A stretch of 64,000 nt of DNA, from the IMG/VR virus record IMGVR_UViG_3300025782_000009; one strand, written 5' to 3'. Under the pieces are notes generated by a model that saw nothing but the letters and a program-made list of their open reading frames with translations, was not told the origin of the DNA and did not search any database. How positions within the stretch are numbered: position 1 is the first letter of the stretch; the number at the start of each line of letters is the position of its first letter. Both the position numbers and the translations under genes were made by a program. The DNA is from a virus (lineage: Duplodnaviria; Heunggongvirae; Uroviricota; Caudoviricetes). Of the stretch, positions 2,504 to 41,662 are shown piece by piece.

Positions 2504-2555
2504 GGTCTACTGACGAGGCTTAATTAGCCGAAACCGCTCCCGGGCGGTATAGATC
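2504..2555 (+). ncRNA. Hammerhead self-cleaving ribozyme, type I (copy 2)
   Basis: GGUCUA, CUGACGA core, G, stem II GGCU-uaauu-AGCC, GAA, A, stem III CCGCUCCCGGGCGG, U, A17, then UAGAUC. Compensatory changes relative to copy 1 preserve stems I and II. The predicted cleavage site is after GUA, between 2549 and 2550. Confidence 0.65.
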
Positions 2556-2576
2556 AACTTAAAAGGAAATAATCAA

Positions 2577-2813
2577 ATGTATATACCAAAAAAAGCTTTT
2601 AAAGATATCAACGACCGATTAGAGCACGGCGATACTTATTTGGACTCAATCAAATACACCGCCTATTTTTACGGGTTCGAGCCCTCAGAGCTCCGCACGG
2701 CCTACGAGAAAAGAGCCTACCGCTCCGAGCTCCTTAGCAACACCGCAACCGCATTAGGAATGCTTGCAATTTTCCTTTGCCCGGTAATTTTCTATTTTGT
2801 TGCCAGGGGTTAA
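2577..2813 (+). CDS. Hypothetical early protein with C-terminal transmembrane segment (78 aa)
   Basis: ORF. The C-terminus ALGMLAIFLCPVIFYFVA is hydrophobic. An aaaaggaaataatcaaATG Shine-Dalgarno precedes it. Confidence 0.5.
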   Translation: MYIPKKAFKDINDRLEHGDTYLDSIKYTAYFYGFEPSELRTAYEKRAYRSELLSNTATALGMLAIFLCPVIFYFVARG

Positions 2814-17249: not shown

Positions 17250-17561
17250 TTATTCGCAAGCTTTCAAAATTGCAAGCGCATCTTCAGGGGATTCCACTAT
17301 TGCCAATAATCCACCCGTCCATTCATCAAAAAACTTCTGCTCCGCCTTGGTCAACTTCCTGGCACTTGGTGTTTTGTTGCCGTCCTTTACTTCCAAGAGC
17401 AACGTATATCCTTTATAGCCCACCAAAAGATCCGGCACACCATCTCCCATCGTCACAATACGCACATATGCCCCAGCTTTTCGTAGGGTTTCTACAATAA
17501 TACTTTCGTTGTCATCTCGTCTTGCGGAGTATCTCATATTAAACCTTTCGTGGGGGGTCAT
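17250..17561 (-). CDS. VRR-NUC domain nuclease (PD-(D/E)xK). The probable start is the internal ATG at 17537 (95 aa), which has a gaaaggtttaatATG Shine-Dalgarno
   Basis: GVPDLLVGYKGYTLLLEVKDGNKTPSARKLTKAEQKFFDEW matches the VRR-NUC D...E.K core. Confidence 0.65.
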   Translation of the reverse strand: MTPHERFNMRYSARRDDNESIIVETLRKAGAYVRIVTMGDGVPDLLVGYKGYTLLLEVKDGNKTPSARKLTKAEQKFFDEWTGGLLAIVESPEDALAILKACE

Positions 17562-18095: not shown

Positions 18096-18969
18096 TCTGC
18101 CAGAGACAATCCTAAACGTACTGGCTCGCCCTACCTATTCCAAAGGCAAGGCTAATATTTCGGCTACTGAATTGATCAATTCACCCCGTATCGTGCAGCT
18201 CAAAAGGAAGCACTGGGACGAGGTGGAGGAGGATGCAAGCTCTATGGTCTGGTCACTGTTTGGCTCTGCCGTTCACAATATCCTGGAGCACGGCAAGCAG
18301 GACAATCATATCGTTGAGGAACGAGTGCACATTACCCACGAGGGATGGCATATCTCCGGCGCAGTAGATCTTCAAGAGGTCTATGAGGACGGAATTGTTA
18401 TCAATGACTACAAGACCACTACCGCCTGGGCTGTACAAAACGACAAGCCGGAATGGGAAGAGCAGCTCAACATATACGCCTGGCTAATCCAGAAAGCTAA
18501 GAATAAACCCGTCAAGGGCTTGCGTATCGTAGCCATAGTGCGCGATTGGAGTCAAAGAGATGCCGTGAATAGGGAAGGCTATCCGCAAGCGCCTATCGTG
18601 ATCCTAGACCAGCAGCTATGGCCTTTTGAGAAGGCTGAACTGTTCATTGAGGAAAGACTAAAGGCACACGGCGAAGCTTACTTTGAATCCGAGACAGACG
18701 GTCAGCTGCCAGAATGTTCACCAGACGATATGTGGGAGAAGCCAACAACCTATGCCGTGATCAAAGTCGGTGGCAAGAGAGCTAAGTCAGTCCATTCCAC
18801 AAAGAGGGACGCGGAAGCAGACTTGGATACAGCCGGCAAAGGATACGAGATCCAGGTCAGACCAGGAGAACGGACACGGTGCAGCAGCTACTGCCAGGTC
18901 AATCAATGGTGCAGCCAGTACCACAAATATTTACAAGAAAACGCAATCGTTGAAGAGGCAATTGAATGA
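18073..18969 (+). CDS. PD-(D/E)xK exonuclease, Cas4/RecB-like, with a C-terminal Cys cluster
   Basis: AVDLQEVYEDGIVINDYKTT carries the D..E.K catalytic core. The C-terminal cysteines are CSPDD ... CSSYCQVNQWC. It is paired with the downstream ERF annealing protein. Confidence 0.7.
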   Translation: MKITNKFNLPETILNVLARPTYSKGKANISATELINSPRIVQLKRKHWDEVEEDASSMVWSLFGSAVHNILEHGKQDNHIVEERVHITHEGWHISGAVDLQEVYEDGIVINDYKTTTAWAVQNDKPEWEEQLNIYAWLIQKAKNKPVKGLRIVAIVRDWSQRDAVNREGYPQAPIVILDQQLWPFEKAELFIEERLKAHGEAYFESETDGQLPECSPDDMWEKPTTYAVIKVGGKRAKSVHSTKRDAEADLDTAGKGYEIQVRPGERTRCSSYCQVNQWCSQYHKYLQENAIVEEAIE

Positions 18970-20162
18970 AAAAAGTAATTCACGAAGCCGATTCCAGACC
19001 CATAAAGATCTGGACGGATGACGTAGAAGAGGAGGCGCTGACCCAGCTTAAGAACCTGGCAAGGCTGCCCTTTATCAACCATCACGGCGTAGTCTGTATG
19101 CCTGATGTTCATGCGGGCAAAGGATCGACCGTGGGAACGGTTATAGCTACCGAGAAGGCGATTATTCCTGCTGCTGTAGGCGTTGACATTGGTTGCGGCA
19201 TGAACGCTGTTAGAACGTCTTTAAAGGCTTCTGACTTGCCTGAATCTTTAAAGGATGTCCGTACCCAGATTGAGCGTGATGTTCCGCTGGGCGCAGGTGG
19301 TCGGGTTCAAGCAGCAATTGATATTGATGATCGCATGAAGCGCTTGCCAAAAACATCATTTGATCTTTGCACAAGGCTAAATGAGATTATCGGTGACTAC
19401 TGGAAAAAGGCTGCCCCACAACTTGGGACGCTTGGATCAGGTAACCACTTCATTGAGCTTTGTATTGATGAGAACCAGGATGTATGGGTAATGCTTCATT
19501 CTGGATCTCGCGGAATAGGAAACATGATTGGCTCTTACTACATTGAAAAAGCCAAGAAAACAATGGAGAAGTTCTTTATCCATCTGCCTGATTCTGACCT
19601 AGCCTATTTGCCAGAGGATACCGATGACTTTAATGAATACATGGATGCCGTGAGTTGGGCGCAGAGCTATGCATTGGAGAACCGCAAGCTAATGATGGAG
19701 ATTGTTTTGGATGCGCTCAGAAGGCATATTTCAAAAGAATTCACGATTACCCAAGAGGCGATCAATTGCCACCATAACTATGTAGAGAAGGAGAATCACT
19801 TTGGAAGAAACCTCTGGGTTACTCGTAAAGGAGCTATTCGTGCGAGATCCGGAGACCTTGGAATTATTCCAGGTTCGATGGGTCAAAAATCATATATTGT
19901 CCGTGGCAAGGGTGAGTTGCAATCCTATTGTTCTTGTTCGCACGGGGCAGGACGCAGTATGTCCAGAGCTGAAGCTAAAAGGCGCTTCAGTATTGATGAC
20001 CTCATTAAACAAACCGAAGGAGTAGAGTGCCGTAAGGATGCGGCAGTGATAGATGAAATCCCAGCTAGTTATAAAAACATAGATCAGGTAATGGCTAACC
20101 AAACAGATCTAGTCGAAGTAGTTCACACCCTAAAACAAGTAATGTGCGTCAAAGGCGCTTAA
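18966..20162 (+). CDS. rtcB: RtcB-family RNA 3'-phosphate ligase
   Basis: Conserved metal-site motifs GSGNHF, HSGSRG, NCHHNY and CSHGAGR are present. The length (398 aa) matches bacterial RtcB. Confidence 0.9.
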   Translation: MKKVIHEADSRPIKIWTDDVEEEALTQLKNLARLPFINHHGVVCMPDVHAGKGSTVGTVIATEKAIIPAAVGVDIGCGMNAVRTSLKASDLPESLKDVRTQIERDVPLGAGGRVQAAIDIDDRMKRLPKTSFDLCTRLNEIIGDYWKKAAPQLGTLGSGNHFIELCIDENQDVWVMLHSGSRGIGNMIGSYYIEKAKKTMEKFFIHLPDSDLAYLPEDTDDFNEYMDAVSWAQSYALENRKLMMEIVLDALRRHISKEFTITQEAINCHHNYVEKENHFGRNLWVTRKGAIRARSGDLGIIPGSMGQKSYIVRGKGELQSYCSCSHGAGRSMSRAEAKRRFSIDDLIKQTEGVECRKDAAVIDEIPASYKNIDQVMANQTDLVEVVHTLKQVMCVKGA

Positions 20163-23674: not shown

Positions 23675-24049
23675 GTGCACTGGTATTTAAAGGCAAGATG
23701 TTCCGGTGCACCCATTGTGGTATCAAGTGGGCTTCTATCGAACCGGCAGAGGCTCACATCTGTGAAGAACGAAATGCAAAGCAAGAACAAGAAACCACCA
23801 ACCGCATCAGAGAAGAAACACATCCAGAGGGTAAAGGAGATGCCATGTATCATATGCGGCGCATCCTCACCGAGCGATTGCCACGAGATTAAACAGGGTC
23901 AGTGGTTTACTTCTATCCCGCTATGCCGGGATTGCCACATGGGCAGCCACAACGGCATACATGGTCGTAAAGCTATATGGAATGTAAAGCGCCTAGACGA
24001 ACTAGACGCATTAGCCCTCACTATCGAAAAGCTTATAACTGAGCCATAG
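23675..24049 (+). CDS. Small HNH-type endonuclease-like protein. The real start may be internal (about 23844); it overlaps the alternative ORF 23665..23892
   Basis: CIICGASSPSDCHEIKQGQWFTSIPLCRDCHMGSHNG has the pattern CxxCG ... DCHEI ... LCxxCH. Confidence 0.45.
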   Translation: MHWYLKARCSGAPIVVSSGLLSNRQRLTSVKNEMQSKNKKPPTASEKKHIQRVKEMPCIICGASSPSDCHEIKQGQWFTSIPLCRDCHMGSHNGIHGRKAIWNVKRLDELDALALTIEKLITEP

Positions 24050-27000
24050 CACGAAGCTTCTTAATATTTATATTCTTTAAGATCAGCTCTTCTTGTTTGT
24101 GTAGATTCTCAATCTGCTTTTCTTTCTTGTCCGGATCCATGTTCGGCTTGTTGCTGATAATGGCTATAGCGTTTTGGATGTTAGATAGATTCTTAGCTAT
24201 CTTATCTATATCGCTATGCATACCAACCCGCATCTGGTGCTCTTTTGACTTCATGTAATCAGCCGCCTCGCTTGGGGTGCGCTTCTTAATATCATTGAAC
24301 GTAGCAGATGCTTTGTCTACTTCATCCTTCAGAATATAGAAGTCACGTTTCAAGCCGGTCTGGTTTTCCTTGGATATAAATCCACTAGATCCTGGGACAG
24401 AGGCAAGCACATCATGCCAGCCAATCGTAGGTCTTTCTACATTTGGATCTGTGTGCAGGATTGGATTGGTCAGCATAAGCGTTAGACCGCCAACAGAACC
24501 AAACATACCGCGGATGATATGGTCAGCGTTGATAGGCGCAATCAACCCGGTCTTACCAAGTACCTTACCAAGCTCAGATGTTGAGTCATTGAACTGCCTG
24601 GATACATCCTCCTTCAGCATGAACGGATTGATCAGGTTGCGGTTCTGGAAAAAGTCATAGTTCAGTGCAACTTCAACTGCTGGCTTGATAGCCTGGGGAA
24701 CAGGAGTAGGAGCCATCAAAGATGAAGTCAAAGCTGATGCCATTGAATCTCTAAACTTACGCCCGTCTTCTGTAGCGTTGTTGGTCATCAATAAATACAG
24801 GTGCTCTGTAATGATCTTTGGAATGGTAAAGACATCGTTCCTGAGTGGAATGCTGAGACCGCCAGATCCAGGGATCATTAGCAGTCTATCCCGTACAGTC
24901 GTTGGCTTCTTTAGGTAGTCATCATCGTCACCGTTCATCATTGCGTACAGCAAAGATAAAGCCATAACAGATCCGGTAGTCATAGCAAGGGTTTGTAATC
25001 CTGCCTTCCTCTCGGTCGGGGATATGCCCTCGCCGGTAATGGTTTTGAATGCTACGTTTTGAACAGCAAGGTAGGCATTGAAGAACGGTATAACTTGGCT
25101 AACTACGCGCAGGGTGGTAGATGTACCCCTCCTACGCACGTTAAACACCTCAAAGGCTTTCTCAATAGCCTCACCGCGGGTCAGTCCTGCCGATACAGAT
25201 GCCTCGTATACAGCTTGTCTAACAGCGTTATCTGATGCCATAGAGATATGCTTGAGCATACCTTTGACCTTGCCCCATCCGCCTGGTGGTGGTTTAACGC
25301 CGGCATAAACCTCAGCATCTCTACGCGCCAGATCAGATGTAAAGTCTGTATATCCTACAGCTCTGTACTTCTTAAGCTCCTCATGGGTTGTACTGGTACG
25401 TCTAAGCGTCTTAACAAACTCCTTGGCTGCAAGCGCAGGGATTCTCAGGGCGTACTGTGGAGACAAGCCGGACGTAAAGATAGCGGAGAACGCATCTTGT
25501 GGTACTTGGCTGACCGCAAAGAGCGGGTTCATTACAACAGATTCTCTAAGGATGTTTGCAAACTTGGAGAAGAACTTAACAGTAGGAACAGATACCGCCT
25601 GGATACCGGCAAAGGCATCTACAAAGAGCGGATCCTTCATGTCGTAAAACTCTTCCTTACCATCTCTCCAAATGCGAACCACGTTAGCATTCTTAATGGG
25701 ATGAGGAATCTTCTTAGCTATACCAAGGCTTTCCAAGTCCTTGCTCATAGCTGTATCAATCATCGCCTTAGCCTGGGAGTTTCTGATGGAACGGTTATAT
25801 GAATACTCGATCCACTTCGCCATGTTGTCCACGATATTGGCAACTGGTCTTTCAGATCCGGTCATCTTGAACTCTCTGGCTTTAACCATCAAGCCGGATA
25901 GATAGTTCTTATCTCCGCCTTTAGCCTCTTCCTCCTCGAACTCGCGCTGGAACGGAACGTAGTCAATGTTTGACATCATCTGCTCTGCGTACTCTTCACT
26001 CCACAGACCAGACTCAACCAGAGCGTCCTTAGCGTTGTTTCTCATGCCCTGCCAGATATCCACAGTATCTTGCAGCTCAGGCATAGACTTAAAGAAATCA
26101 AGACCTGTAGCAATCTGCTCGTCCGATAGATGAATAAGCTTTGGCTTTTGCTTGGCAAGATTCTCAAACCTAGAGATAGCAGCCTTCACTTCTGCCCTCT
26201 GCGCCTTGGTATCAGGATCATTCCCGGTCAGGCTGTTCAGTAGTTCATTGAGAGCCTCGATCTCTTCAGGAGCGCTGGCAATAGATGCGTTGAAGTCTTT
26301 CAGCGACTGGGTACGTCTAGCCTCAAACGCCATGTGCGTAACAAGCTCTGCCTCCTGGTACGTCATGTTGTACTTATTGGCAAACTCACTAATTGATTTA
26401 ATAAGTTCTTTTAAGTTGTATCTATCCTTTACAACCTCCCACTTCTGAACATCATCATCGTATCCCAGCTTTCCATCAAGCAGTGCACCATTGGCAACAA
26501 TATCAGCACCAACAGCTTGGCTGGTACTGATATTAAGCCGGTTTCTAACCTTATCACTCATCTCGCCATCCGCTTGCATGATGCCGCGTTTGATGTTGTT
26601 ATTGAATGCAGAGTCACTGCTAAATATCCAGGTCTGTATCTTGTCAGAGAACTTGGTAGCAGCTTTTTTGGCATCTTCTATAGCCATGCCAGGATTGTCT
26701 ATAGCGTTATCCCAGTAGCTCTTAAGGTTCTCGTAGAAACTCTTTGGTTGCTCTTCTACTTCACGACCCATATCCCTTAATGAATCAAGTGCATCTCTGC
26801 CCGCGCCAGTGGCTTGACTTGGCTGGATTGGAGATTCCTCTGCGGTCATCTTTGGATTTGATTTCAGCCTTCCCGGAGGGGCTTGAGGAGTAGTTGGAAC
26901 ACCTAATGTGTACCCTTTCTTTTCCAGATCTTTAGCAATCTCTAGCGCTGGATTTTCAAACATATCAGTAGATATTCTGATTAATCTATCCAATGCTGTT

Positions 27001-30000
27001 TCGTATTCTGGAGATAAATTTAAAACCTTACGGACAAACTCCATCAATTTATCAAGAGCAGTCTTATTGCCAACTTTAATTCCAGCCAAATATTTCTGCA
27101 TTGCAGGATCGGTCAATCCTTGCGTAATAAACTCAGCATAGAAATCACCCTCTACACCTGTTGATTTTTTAAAGGCATAATTAATTGAGAATTCATCTCT
27201 AATATATTTGCCTTCTTTCTTGTCCTTTCTCCATTGTTTATGAACAAGCTTTCTTAAATCATCTAATTCTTTTACGAGAGGATTATCTGTGCCAAGGAAT
27301 TTAATTTCCGCCAAAGAAATAAGATGTATAAATTCATGCGCTAAGACTTCAAAAGTAGAACCCTTCTCGCCATTAATTTCCATTATGAAATTTATTTTCC
27401 CAAGACCTGAAGGACTAAATACTCTACCCAAAGATGAACGTTTTTTATTCATTACATATTTGGTAGAAAAAGTCATTGGTACGCCGCGGCGATCAAACTC
27501 TTGTACTTTGCGAAGAATGTGTTCAGCTATTCCTTTGTGATATGAGTCATGCGCTATATCAACTAAAATCTGCGCTGCCTCAACAATATTTTTACCATTT
27601 AACCTTTTAAGCAATTCTGCTTTGCTCAACTGAGGCTTTTGGAAAAAAGTATCTTTTGTTGGCGGCTCATCTGGAGGAGTAAATAAATCTTTCTCTCCTT
27701 CAAATGCCTTTTTAAACACCTCATCCAGCGAGCGTTTGGGAACTTCCCCGAACATATCTGTGTCTGTTCTGTTGTGCTCTTCAAGCGCGGCATTAGCTAA
27801 GTTATTTAATCCTTCGGTAATCTTCTTACCCGACCTGCCAGAGTCTGCAAACATTTGAAGAATTCTTTGGGTATAAGGATTAGTCCCTATATCCATTTGC
27901 TTAGCCATATCTTCAAGCGGTATATTTCTACGCCTTGCATTAACCGCTGCTTCTGCGGCTTGGGTTACATAAGGACGGATATCGTACTCTCCAGCGCCAT
28001 CAAGCTGCGCCATCTTAGGAGCAACGGTTCCAAGTGAATTTAATACAAGTCTTGACTCAGCATCCCTGGTTGGCCCATACAGATTAATTAACTGCTCATT
28101 GCCATATGCCTTCCAAAACACAGCATTCATCAAACGATCTTCTGCTTTCTTTGAAGGCTGACCAAACAAGTCCTTTAAATCAGGATGCTCTGATACCGGC
28201 ATCGCATTAACAAAGTCCCGCAATGAATCAATATGCGGATCACCGTTATCATAAAATTTCAAAGAATTAATATCTATTCGGTTGGCATCTTGTTTGGCTG
28301 AATCAATAGCTGACAAACCAGAGATACCAGATACGTTTGATATATCACCAATGTTAGGCGTAATAAAAGACTTAGGCATCACCCGCACCAACACGGGCTG
28401 CTTCATGTCCGCAATAGTCTTGGGATCAATGCCGTGGGCTGCATCGTTAACCAACTCTTCCTTGTACTTGCCAGCTGTTCCGCGCTGATAAGCCTCTTGT
28501 ATACCTGCTACACGACCATTACCCGCAACCGGGCGAATAGCAGAGACAGATAAATCCTGGTACTCAGCATTCTTTGTGCCATCATGGGAATGAGATGGTA
28601 GCAATTCATGTGCATCAACAACTGCATACCTAACTGGAATCTTTGTTCCGTCAGATGCTGTGGTCATCTCATAGTTTCCAAGCTGGTTTTCGTTTAGCTT
28701 CTCATCGGTCATAACCACTGGAGCGCCAGAACCAAAACTGCGAGATATGCTTAAATCGTTATATCTTGGATTAGCTGCAACACCTTGCATTTGCTGAATA
28801 GATGCATCTGTAGATCTGTCTCTATTTTGAAAGACCGTACTGGATGCGTCTGGCAACCCTTGGTGGTAATTCTCAAAGTGCTGAGACAAGTCTGGATTTG
28901 CACCTGGCGCAACATTTCCCGGTGGAGTAGTAGGAGGATTGACCGGAGGCGTGGCAGGTGGAGTCTCAGGAGCAGCTGGAGGAGCGGGCGGAGTAGTACC
29001 CGGCTTTTGTGCGGCTGCTGGCTTCTGAAGCAAACCCATACCACCGGCAGTACCAATAGCACCAATACCCGCCTGGGCAGCAGTGCGTCCAAGATTCTCT
29101 GTTAACTCTGCATTAGGATCTACCTGTTGCTGAGCTACGTTCTGAGCAAGCTGTCCACCAACTTCCTCAATCTCTTCACTGGGTAGCTCACCAAGGGCGA
29201 GACCTGCTGCATTACGCAACCTACCTGCTTTACCTGCTTTACCTGCCAATGCCTCAGCAAACCTGTGTCCGCCTGGTAGATTCTGAGCGCCAAGGGATAT
29301 AGCTGCACCTGCAACACCAGTAGCCCTAGCGTACTTCAATGCTCTTTCTTTAGCCTCGTCCTCTGGTACGCCATCAGCAATCATCTTGTCATAGGTTGCT
29401 TTGTATACCTGTGCACCTACGTCAGAGCCTTGCTGTAAAGCACCAGTACCGATAGCAGCCCGTGCGCCAGACTTAACGGCAGCAGCTTGAGCAGCTTCAG
29501 CAGCAGCCTTCTCGGCAGCAGTACCTACGGCTTTCCTAGCGGCAGCTCTAGATGCGGCAACAGCAGGAGATAGTTCAGGAGCAGCAATAGCAGCAATAAT
29601 AGCCGGCAATTGTTCAGGTAACTGCTGGGCAATAAAGTTAAGACCAAGACCAAATGGGTCTTTGATTGTCTCTAATGCTTCACGACCAAGGGCGCTGAGC
29701 TGTCCACTCTTTTCCGCTTCTTTGACCTTCTCTTCTTTGAGTTGTTCCCTAGCTTTTAAACCAGGAGACTTCATCTCTTCGCCGTACTGTTGCAGCTTAT
29801 TACCAATAGCCATTACGCCGGTATCGGAGAAATCTCCAGTAGCCAGACCATACATCTGCGGTACAAACTTAGCTGCACCACCAACGCCAGATACTAATCC
29901 AGCACCAATGTCCGTTGCAGCCTGACCAAACGTCCTGCTTGTATCAGGAGCTTTGGGTGGCGGCGGAGCGGGTAGATCAGAAATGTCTACTGGTCTAGGC

Positions 30001-30035
30001 TTGGTAGGATCCGGTAAATCGCTAATATCAATCAT
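24033..30035 (-). CDS. Giant virion-associated or ejection protein (2000 aa) with a zincin-like HExxH motif, Ala-rich and Pro-rich N-terminal segments
   Basis: A continuous 6-kb ORF at the end of the late operon. FEVLAHEFIHLISLAE contains HExxH. Features include an N-terminal DISDLP repeat, an Ala/Gly-rich helix region and a PPAPPAAPETPPATPPVNPPTTPP linker. Confidence 0.8.
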   Translation of the reverse strand: MIDISDLPDPTKPRPVDISDLPAPPPPKAPDTSRTFGQAATDIGAGLVSGVGGAAKFVPQMYGLATGDFSDTGVMAIGNKLQQYGEEMKSPGLKAREQLKEEKVKEAEKSGQLSALGREALETIKDPFGLGLNFIAQQLPEQLPAIIAAIAAPELSPAVAASRAAARKAVGTAAEKAAAEAAQAAAVKSGARAAIGTGALQQGSDVGAQVYKATYDKMIADGVPEDEAKERALKYARATGVAGAAISLGAQNLPGGHRFAEALAGKAGKAGRLRNAAGLALGELPSEEIEEVGGQLAQNVAQQQVDPNAELTENLGRTAAQAGIGAIGTAGGMGLLQKPAAAQKPGTTPPAPPAAPETPPATPPVNPPTTPPGNVAPGANPDLSQHFENYHQGLPDASSTVFQNRDRSTDASIQQMQGVAANPRYNDLSISRSFGSGAPVVMTDEKLNENQLGNYEMTTASDGTKIPVRYAVVDAHELLPSHSHDGTKNAEYQDLSVSAIRPVAGNGRVAGIQEAYQRGTAGKYKEELVNDAAHGIDPKTIADMKQPVLVRVMPKSFITPNIGDISNVSGISGLSAIDSAKQDANRIDINSLKFYDNGDPHIDSLRDFVNAMPVSEHPDLKDLFGQPSKKAEDRLMNAVFWKAYGNEQLINLYGPTRDAESRLVLNSLGTVAPKMAQLDGAGEYDIRPYVTQAAEAAVNARRRNIPLEDMAKQMDIGTNPYTQRILQMFADSGRSGKKITEGLNNLANAALEEHNRTDTDMFGEVPKRSLDEVFKKAFEGEKDLFTPPDEPPTKDTFFQKPQLSKAELLKRLNGKNIVEAAQILVDIAHDSYHKGIAEHILRKVQEFDRRGVPMTFSTKYVMNKKRSSLGRVFSPSGLGKINFIMEINGEKGSTFEVLAHEFIHLISLAEIKFLGTDNPLVKELDDLRKLVHKQWRKDKKEGKYIRDEFSINYAFKKSTGVEGDFYAEFITQGLTDPAMQKYLAGIKVGNKTALDKLMEFVRKVLNLSPEYETALDRLIRISTDMFENPALEIAKDLEKKGYTLGVPTTPQAPPGRLKSNPKMTAEESPIQPSQATGAGRDALDSLRDMGREVEEQPKSFYENLKSYWDNAIDNPGMAIEDAKKAATKFSDKIQTWIFSSDSAFNNNIKRGIMQADGEMSDKVRNRLNISTSQAVGADIVANGALLDGKLGYDDDVQKWEVVKDRYNLKELIKSISEFANKYNMTYQEAELVTHMAFEARRTQSLKDFNASIASAPEEIEALNELLNSLTGNDPDTKAQRAEVKAAISRFENLAKQKPKLIHLSDEQIATGLDFFKSMPELQDTVDIWQGMRNNAKDALVESGLWSEEYAEQMMSNIDYVPFQREFEEEEAKGGDKNYLSGLMVKAREFKMTGSERPVANIVDNMAKWIEYSYNRSIRNSQAKAMIDTAMSKDLESLGIAKKIPHPIKNANVVRIWRDGKEEFYDMKDPLFVDAFAGIQAVSVPTVKFFSKFANILRESVVMNPLFAVSQVPQDAFSAIFTSGLSPQYALRIPALAAKEFVKTLRRTSTTHEELKKYRAVGYTDFTSDLARRDAEVYAGVKPPPGGWGKVKGMLKHISMASDNAVRQAVYEASVSAGLTRGEAIEKAFEVFNVRRRGTSTTLRVVSQVIPFFNAYLAVQNVAFKTITGEGISPTERKAGLQTLAMTTGSVMALSLLYAMMNGDDDDYLKKPTTVRDRLLMIPGSGGLSIPLRNDVFTIPKIITEHLYLLMTNNATEDGRKFRDSMASALTSSLMAPTPVPQAIKPAVEVALNYDFFQNRNLINPFMLKEDVSRQFNDSTSELGKVLGKTGLIAPINADHIIRGMFGSVGGLTLMLTNPILHTDPNVERPTIGWHDVLASVPGSSGFISKENQTGLKRDFYILKDEVDKASATFNDIKKRTPSEAADYMKSKEHQMRVGMHSDIDKIAKNLSNIQNAIAIISNKPNMDPDKKEKQIENLHKQEELILKNINIKKLRAMAQL

Positions 30036-41203: not shown

Positions 41204-41662
41204 TCACCTCAAGTCTGCTTTGATGTTAGCCAACCGCTCACGCTCTGCTTCGTCCAGAACTGGTGGGGTAGTTGGTGCGGGAGGCGGTGTCCAACCAGGA
41301 GCAGCTGCCATTGTAATAGTCTCTACCTTGGGAGCCACATAAGCGGACGTACCTGCTTTGACGTTATTCATCATAGCCGTTGCCTCGTTGGTCAAGCCCT
41401 TGGTCATAATGCCACCGATACCGCCCACGATTAGCAGGACGATATCATTCAGCATCTTGGTAAAAGCCTGGTCAATAGGAGCCATAGCCTTAATTGGCTG
41501 GCTAACAAACATGACACTATAAATTAGGGTAACTACTATAAAGAATAGTATGAGAGTTACCACAACAATGACAAAAGCCCTGGTGCGGGCTTCTATTTCA
41601 TCGGCAGTTAGCCGTTCCTGATTGGGGTTGGGGGTTAGCAGGAGTAGCAGGATTTCCTTCAA
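41204..41662 (-). CDS. Membrane protein (152 aa) in the lysis/membrane cluster
   Basis: Transmembrane segment FVIVVVTLILFFIVVTLIYSV. Overlaps the upstream lipoprotein ORF, so its start is uncertain. Confidence 0.45.
   Translation of the reverse strand: MKEILLLLLTPNPNQERLTADEIEARTRAFVIVVVTLILFFIVVTLIYSVMFVSQPIKAMAPIDQAFTKMLNDIVLLIVGGIGGIMTKGLTNEATAMMNNVKAGTSAYVAPKVETITMAAAPGWTPPPAPTTPPVLDEAERERLANIKADLR

Follow-up and report, generated by a model that had tools for sequence, protein, structure and literature searches.

The DNA analysed here (the window) is a 64,000-nt stretch from an uncultured phage, IMG/VR record IMGVR_UViG_3300025782_000009. Its content is phage-like: we found a weak match to a terminase small subunit, a C5 methyltransferase, a helicase, an ERF recombinase, structural and tail proteins and an RtcB RNA ligase, and a 2000-aa ORF (24033-30035, - strand) opens a large block of structural genes. 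Between 1500 and 4500, no nucleotide similarity to cultured phages was detected. This part of the window carries the beginning of a run of about 15 small ORFs on the + strand, extending from 1706 to approximately 5600, and at the start of this run lie two hammerhead ribozymes, copy 1 (1920-1969, +) and copy 2 (2504-2555, +). A 234-aa gene (766-1470) is divergent from the run; its product has no match in cultured phages and its relatives adjoin hammerheads of the family described below in a dozen other loci. When we scanned for promoters and terminators, we obtained no more sites than in shuffled sequence and no convincing promoter upstream.

The first ORF of the run encodes 70 aa (1706-1918, +), with 83% amino-acid identity in L077, a related IMG/VR locus, and its TAA stop (1916-1918) is located 1 nt before stem I of copy 1. 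Two ORFs follow on what is predicted to be a 586-nt inter-ribozyme fragment (1964-2549). The first of them, of 104 aa (1989-2303, +), starts 25 nt past the predicted cut of copy 1 with an AAGGA Shine-Dalgarno sequence ahead, and its product falls into a conserved family of hypothetical proteins (86 clusters) without a Pfam domain. Homologues of this protein are also found in one bacterial genome locus and two phage loci (L201-L203) with no flanking hammerheads, and the ribozyme is therefore not needed for that gene as such. In L201 (GCA_009612995.1, WBZL01000002.1 118617-130949) the homologue is placed among RadC, DUF2958, DUF6011, DUF6094 and DNA polymerase III beta, in what looks like a mobile-element region. 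The second ORF of the fragment, of 62 aa (2315-2503, +; 98% identity in L077), is closed by the TAA 2501-2503. The next ORF, of 78 aa (2577-2813, +), would open the RNA predicted downstream of the copy 2 cut; its start codon lies 27 nt past that cut, also with AAGGA ahead. For the flanked genes, Pfam, PHROGs and NCBIfam gave no functional match.

Copy 2 was recognized from its sequence, by a descriptor scan, by a covariance model and by its predicted fold. It reads GGUCUA-CUGACGA-GGCU(UAAUU)AGCC-GAA-ACCGCU(CCCG)GGCGGU-A-UAGAUC. Stem I has 6 bp (2504-2509 with 2550-2555) and is followed by the core strand C3-A9, CUGACGA (2510-2516). Stem II (2517-2520 with 2526-2529) carries the loop UAAUU (2521-2525) and contains the closing pair G10.1-C11.1, here G2517-C2529. 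After G12-A13-A14 (GAA, 2530-2532) comes stem III (2533-2538 with 2543-2548, loop CCCG 2539-2542), which begins with the A15.1-U16.1 pair, A2533-U2548. The cleavage nucleotide H17 is A17 at 2549, and scission is predicted between 2549 and 2550. No core position is missing, the helices are arranged as in type I and, at the level of sequence, the identity of 2504-2555 as a hammerhead is confirmed. The preliminary description had placed this element directly after the TAA at 2501-2503, and the stop of ORF 2315-2503 does abut copy 2. With flanks of 3 nt, the hammerhead fold is the minimum free energy structure of both copies (-17.6 kcal/mol for copy 2); with 40 nt of context on each side, it lies 1.6-3.3 kcal/mol above the predicted minimum free energy fold. 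In the precursor, a helix enclosing the ribozyme can be drawn between 2493-2500 (AUAUUUCU) and the Shine-Dalgarno region 2563-2570 (AGGAAAUA). It exists in copy 2 only, being absent at copy 1 and not kept in L077, and this pairing is probably fortuitous.

Copy 1, also of type I, was identified by its sequence, the descriptor scan and the same covariance model, and reads GGUUAA-CUGACGA-GACU(UGAAU)AGUC-GAA-ACCGC(UCCG)GCGGU-C-UUAACC. Its stem I pairs 1920-1925 with 1964-1969, the core strand occupies 1926-1932, and stem-loop II (1933-1945), GAA (1946-1948) and stem-loop III (1949-1962) follow; C17 is at 1963, with predicted scission between 1963 and 1964. H17, which in hammerheads is A, C or U and never G, is C at 1963 in copy 1 and A at 2549 in copy 2. 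From start to start, the two are 584 nt apart. Most of the differences listed in the preliminary description are seen in the sequences: two full pair swaps in stem I (U-A to C-G and A-U to U-A), one in stem II (A-U to G-C) and the change of the cleavage nucleotide from C in copy 1 to A in copy 2, with CUGACGA, GAA and A15.1-U16.1 the same in both. Stem I holds a further difference that it did not mention, G-C in copy 1 becoming G.U in copy 2. The additional CG pair that it attributed to stem III of copy 2 does not exist; instead, the loop region is longer by a C and a G, which leaves room for no further pair other than a U.G wobble that closes the CCCG loop. It had also taken covariation between the copies as an argument for a selected RNA structure. 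Two copies alone provide weak support for this conclusion, which becomes overwhelming with the 134 distinct relatives described below.

We then asked how often such a motif is expected. For this purpose, both strands of the 64-kb window were scanned with a descriptor specifying the core, GAA, A15.1-U16.1, an H17 other than G and minimal stems. Exactly two sites were found, copies 1 and 2, compared with a mean of 0.0033 in 300 Markov shuffles. A covariance model, R1, was built from 24 gap-free unrelated IMG/VR members, the window and its close relative being left out. R1 detected copy 1 with 73.8 bits (E=1.3e-18, match at 1917-1972) and copy 2 with 61.7 bits (E=4.2e-15, match at 2501-2558). The structure-constrained alignment that had been proposed as a check on the first reading therefore holds, the alignment of each copy to R1 being full-length, from model position 1 to 56. 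The third-best R1 match, at 41567-41616 on the - strand, was rejected; it scores 17.9 bits, has the core CUGCCGA, lacks stem II and lies within an ORF. Three other CTGANGA...GAAA matches in the window are likewise without stem II, and descriptors for type II and type III hammerheads gave no match in the window. A search for further copies in this phage and its relatives had been suggested; the relatives have many, and the window has no more of any hammerhead type.

With Rfam 15 at gathering thresholds, no match was obtained in the whole window. In a 901-nt search, copy 1 reached 26.3 bits (E=0.054) against RAGATH-1-hammerhead (RF03152), whose gathering score is 56.3, and it reached 17.4 bits against Hammerhead_1 (RF00163), whose gathering score is 34. 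In E-value mode, copy 2 matched neither RF00163 nor RF03152 and gave only a partial Hammerhead_3 match; the DUF2815-RNA matches returned in this mode are just a Shine-Dalgarno sequence plus ATG. Failure to reach the Rfam thresholds, together with the GC-rich hairpin formed by stem III, could suggest a chance resemblance, an ordinary hairpin or a terminator. Against this, the chance expectation is 0.003 per window and an independent model gives E ~1e-15; the hairpin is not followed by a U-tract and there is no + strand terminator-like call at this place; and hundreds of covarying relatives exist. The probability left to such readings is negligible, and we consider both chance and a terminator as excluded.

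These relatives were collected from IMG/VR with a pattern made of the core and stem-loop II only, CTGACGAGNCTTNANTAGNCGAAAC. At least 118 viral contigs contain a match. Among the 119 matches listed, 109 have flanks which, left unconstrained in the search, complete a 6-bp stem I, a stem III and an H17 that is C or A; stem III varies in length and sequence. R1 found 153 ribozymes in 100 IMG/VR loci. For 134 distinct members, 99.6% of 2002 stem cells are paired, as compared with 29-42% when the partners are slid, and compensatory changes are observed at 13 of the 15 pairs, with a covariation score that none of 500 shuffles reached. The alignment was fitted to the model, yet stems I and II are gap-free, so fitting cannot explain the covariation result. 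The 47 members lying outside the seed pattern behave in the same manner: their core strand is invariant except for N7, which is U, C or A, and their stem II covaries. Throughout the family H17 is only C, in the majority, or A; G10.1-C11.1 is G-C in 133 of the 134 members and A15.1-U16.1 is A-U in all 134. Catalytic nucleotides that stay invariant in 134 sequences while the helices are free to change are, as far as sequences can tell, the signature of selection for catalysis, and the G.U pairs mark the + strand RNA as the selected molecule.

The same data bear on the possibility that the element acts mainly at the DNA level, as a repeat marking a recombination boundary for cassette swaps in the way of the promoter/stem-loop repeats of T4-like phages, or as a non-catalytic RNA, i.e. 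a non-cleaving protective 3' structure. Some observations are in line with a boundary. The window is 95% identical to L077 over 1-2567, and although the BLAST alignment extends to 2567, base by base the homology stops 2 nt past the 3' end of copy 2, where a different gene begins. In L077 (reverse strand, ~1354-1709), 348 nt with an extra 45-aa ORF stand in place of 204 nt, to be compared with window 2556-2771, and homology resumes at 2772. Among related loci, 11% of 90 internal homology breakpoints fall within 20 nt of a ribozyme edge, about sixfold above the 1.8% of random positions, a baseline not matched for intergenic location. Copies with identical stem I also recur within genomes. A DNA repeat, however, would keep neither one-strand G.U pairing nor compensatory changes at 13 of 15 pairs, and the catalytic nucleotides are all invariant across the 134 sequences while the helices vary. 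We regard a main function in DNA or in a non-cleaving RNA as unlikely. In favour of a hammerhead, the three ribozyme differences between the window and L077 touch only sites which the family leaves variable: one base of loop III, the N of loop II and residue 17, which is A in copy 2 of the window and C in copy 2 of L077. A boundary role is compatible with catalysis, and is more an additional role than a rival to it.

As none of the approximately 50 family members in 15 sampled loci (L002, L016, L019, L020, L021, L031, L038, L045, L047, L064, L065, L077, L083, L090 and L092) reaches an Rfam 15 gathering score, standard annotation misses this subfamily. Compact type I hammerheads that form a large and coherent family, with hundreds of copies in viral metagenomes, in this way escape the curated Rfam thresholds, and annotators overlook these elements or lay spurious genes over them. 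We compared the family with the two closest Rfam models. Hammerhead_1 (RF00163), known from Schistosoma, newt and other satellite DNAs, shares with the family the type I topology and the core; its stem II likewise has 4 bp, and its loop II, also rich in A/U, resembles the present one and ends in UAG/AUAG. Its seed differs by a longer stem I with an internal loop contacting loop II, whereas the present stem I ends after 6 bp in an A-rich single strand. RAGATH-1 (RF03152), the best Rfam match for copy 1, is bacterial or phage-associated and type I-like, with a 5-bp stem I. Its model, in contrast, has a single-pair stem II and a required conserved 5' hairpin, while the present family is unconserved upstream of position -1. 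Membership in RAGATH-1 was rejected on the score of copy 1 (26.3 bits against 56.3), on the absence of a match for copy 2 and on the lack of conservation of the 5' hairpin in the family.

Natural hammerheads cleave fast at physiological Mg2+ only if elements of stem I and stem II are in tertiary contact. In this family stem I has exactly 6 bp, with G-C as the outer pair, and neither a pseudoknot nor an internal loop in stem I was found. Conservation does extend to a few unpaired positions. At -1, directly before stem I, A is found in all 99 of 99 non-redundant members and in 45 of the 47 outside the seed pattern; in copy 2 this base is A2503 (+), which at the same time completes the TAA stop of ORF 2315-2503. 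On the 3' side, position +1 is A in 98 of 99 non-redundant members (43 of 47 outside the seed pattern) and position +2 in 79 of 99, corresponding in copy 2 to the unpaired AA at 2556-2557 (+). Loop II follows the consensus UNANU, with U in 45, A in 40 and U in 42 of the 47 members outside the seed pattern. Nothing is conserved upstream of -1 or farther downstream and both flanks are A-rich, which indicates that stem I goes no further than 6 bp. The contact between stem I and stem II may then involve the unpaired A residues and loop II, the AA at 2556-2557 being a candidate partner of this loop.

The placement of the ribozymes relative to genes is also uniform. In loci with several copies, all are co-oriented, with up to 6 per locus at distances of 257-1849 nt. 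The next start codon follows the ribozyme at a median distance of 21 nt, and in 97 of 133 members the upstream frame ends between -3 and +12 nt from the ribozyme start. The upstream stop is a UAA within stem I (GGU-UAA) in 29 of 133 and the UGA of the catalytic core (C-UGA) in 19; in 31 more it ends 0-1 nt past the start of stem I or at most 1 nt short of it. With stops at or inside the ribozyme, a terminating ribosome would occupy its 5' half. The two copies of the window fit this placement: the stop offset is -1 for copy 1 and 0 for copy 2, and the leaders measure 25 and 27 nt.

Taken together, we conclude that copy 2 is very probably a type I self-cleaving hammerhead, the second of two among co-oriented small phage genes, which together would split a polycistronic mRNA in three. 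The motif, the family membership, the covariation and the genomic placement on which this explanation is built come from the present analysis; the cut site and the chemistry of the ends are taken from established hammerhead chemistry. The transcribed RNA would fold into a three-helix junction, in which the 2'-OH of A17 (2549) would attack its own 3' phosphate. The upstream product would then carry the folded ribozyme at its 3' end, terminated by a 2',3'-cyclic phosphate; indeed, a type I cut leaves almost all of the ribozyme with this RNA. The downstream product would begin with 5'-OH-UAGAUCAA, 27 nt before the next start codon, its order being the 5'-OH, six stem I nucleotides, AA and then the Shine-Dalgarno sequence. 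The copies are co-oriented and no terminator-like site separates them, which suggests that both ribozymes are on one transcript. Cuts at 1963/1964 and 2549/2550 would produce three pieces, namely the first ORF, the 586-nt piece with two ORFs and the remaining genes, whose stabilities might be independent of one another and each of which might begin with a short, standard leader free of structure. We infer that cleavage takes place in vivo and has consequences for gene expression. We also considered cleavage as a switch freeing the ribosome-binding site. The mean unpaired probability of the 30 nt after the ribozyme goes from 0.62 to 0.68, a small shift, expected from the removal of upstream sequence, so that there is no obvious translational switch and this proposal was rejected.

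Cutting of a polycistronic mRNA into gene-sized pieces is the most likely function by analogy with described cases. Clustered hammerheads flanking small phage genes have already been described and shown by experiment (PMC3088659; PMC6155905). Perreault et al. (2011) reported clusters in phages and prophages, e.g. a triple hammerhead around ardA in Agrobacterium tumefaciens, and observed that tandem prophage hammerheads cut transcripts of ~2 kb at every ribozyme, in vitro and in E. coli (PMC3088659). Their cases resemble ours in the canonical core, in the several co-oriented copies in gaps between small, non-conserved phage genes, in the proposed cutting of long transcripts to gene-length mRNAs and in the fact that the identity of the flanked genes is not constant. 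They differ in that types I, II and III are mixed and many have a pseudoknot as tertiary contact, while the present family is uniformly of type I, with an open 6-bp stem I, flanking A residues, the UNANU loop and no pseudoknot or stem I extension detected; this separation is drawn from the published description of those cases. The arrangement is thus known in phages since 2011, and what is added here is two unannotated ribozymes in an uncultured phage. According to reviews, the biological role of phage hammerheads is still an open question (PMC6765202, PMC6155905). The present family offers clean material for it, because its placement is uniform, from the stop codon to ~21 nt before the next start, because the conserved candidate contact positions are mutable and because stem I sequences are kept alike within a genome, as described below.

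Synthetic biology provides another comparison. In RiboJ-type insulators, a hammerhead is inserted after a promoter or an upstream gene, directly ahead of the ribosome-binding site, and its cleavage strips off the preceding sequence and leaves a short defined 5'-OH leader; RiboJ was engineered from a type III satellite-RNA hammerhead with an added hairpin. The element of the window, in contrast, is natural and of type I, and would leave only 6 nt plus AA on the downstream mRNA.

The sequence of stem I shows a regularity of another kind. At its variable positions, neighbours within a locus are 82% identical, against 38% between loci, whereas the free stem II pair is at chance (23% within and 27% between loci). 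In 13 of 27 independent clusters stem I is wholly identical, and in 35 of 53 adjacent pairs the stem I strands are fully cross-compatible, compared with 9.5% of random pairs; L020, L047, L064, L083, L031 and L038 (IMG/VR loci L001-L100) are examples. The pair of the window is an exception, GGUUAA and GGUCUA differing at 3 of 6 pairs, and GGUCUA set against UUAACC is compatible at 4 of 6. This uniformity of stem I within genomes suggests that the helix is under a genome-specific constraint, beyond what folding explains.

Such cross-compatibility brings the RtcB ligase into consideration. Its gene (18966-20162, +) is identified with confidence in the window (Pfam PF01139, 436 bits; PHROG 1075, E=9e-155), and, among cultured phages, Bordetella phage PHB04 (74% identity) and Burkholderia phage FLC9 have the most similar proteins. 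RtcB joins 2',3'-cyclic phosphate to 5'-OH ends, which are the ends that hammerheads leave. An alternative is hence that RtcB re-joins the hammerhead products, the 586-nt fragment being circularised or the fragments reordered, as in retrozymes, viroids and the synthetic Tornado system. Relatives of this RtcB occur in only 638 of 50,697 phage records (1.3%), which counts in favour of this alternative, as do the 35 of 53 adjacent pairs, whose fragment ends would meet in a nicked hammerhead. Linkage nevertheless speaks against this alternative: 80 viral loci carrying RtcB (1.28 Mb in total) contained no hammerhead at a distance of up to 10 kb from the gene, and 118 hammerhead loci (~1 Mb) contained no RtcB, where a general obligate link would predict approximately 10 matches in each test. 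In the window itself, RtcB is 16.5 kb away from the ribozymes and the stem I strands of the two copies are only 4/6 cross-compatible. Furthermore, a phage RtcB is usually explained as mending tRNAs that host nucleases have cleaved. Perreault et al. had suggested that products might be spliced or circular, but sought such RNAs and found none (PMC3088659). We therefore judge re-joining by RtcB to be very unlikely here.

In viroids, satellite RNAs and retrozymes, tandem hammerheads excise monomers that are circularised by tRNA ligase or RtcB (PMC7229834, PMC4918200). Common to these systems and to the present one are repeated co-oriented hammerheads, the stem I shared by neighbours in many relatives and the RtcB gene in the phage of the window; the differences are that a dsDNA phage with protein-coding mRNAs is concerned here, that stem I of the window matches at 4/6 and that no general RtcB association was found. 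For the family as a whole, stem I identity might allow the ends of excised fragments to re-form a nicked hammerhead from which, in phages that carry it like the present one, RtcB would make circular or reshuffled mRNAs, or the shared 5'-OH leader might be a recognition tag. This proposal is a long shot; if true, either outcome would be an undescribed layer of phage mRNA biology. The homogenisation of stem I and the co-occurrence with RtcB are, in our opinion, the leads most worth following.

The search pattern is strongly virus-enriched, with 8 occurrences in 185,579 species genomes; these are in MAGs or genomes of Bacteroidota, Betaproteobacteria, Rickettsiales and Clostridium, where R1 gives 11 matches on 8 contigs. 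A 27-nt match in Erwinia phages was discarded as chance (18 bits, stems fail). A member is present in a cultured phage, Flavobacterium phage vB_FspP_elemoA_7-9A (Elemovirus), with an R1 score of 50.7 bits. There, the R1 match covers L199 5994-6057, the ribozyme being at about 17287-17350 on the minus strand of MT497017, and it lies between two co-oriented small genes. A 35-aa CDS annotated as 'hypothetical protein' (L199 5962-6069 = MT497017.1 17275-17382) runs antisense over this hammerhead, and it is probably spurious.
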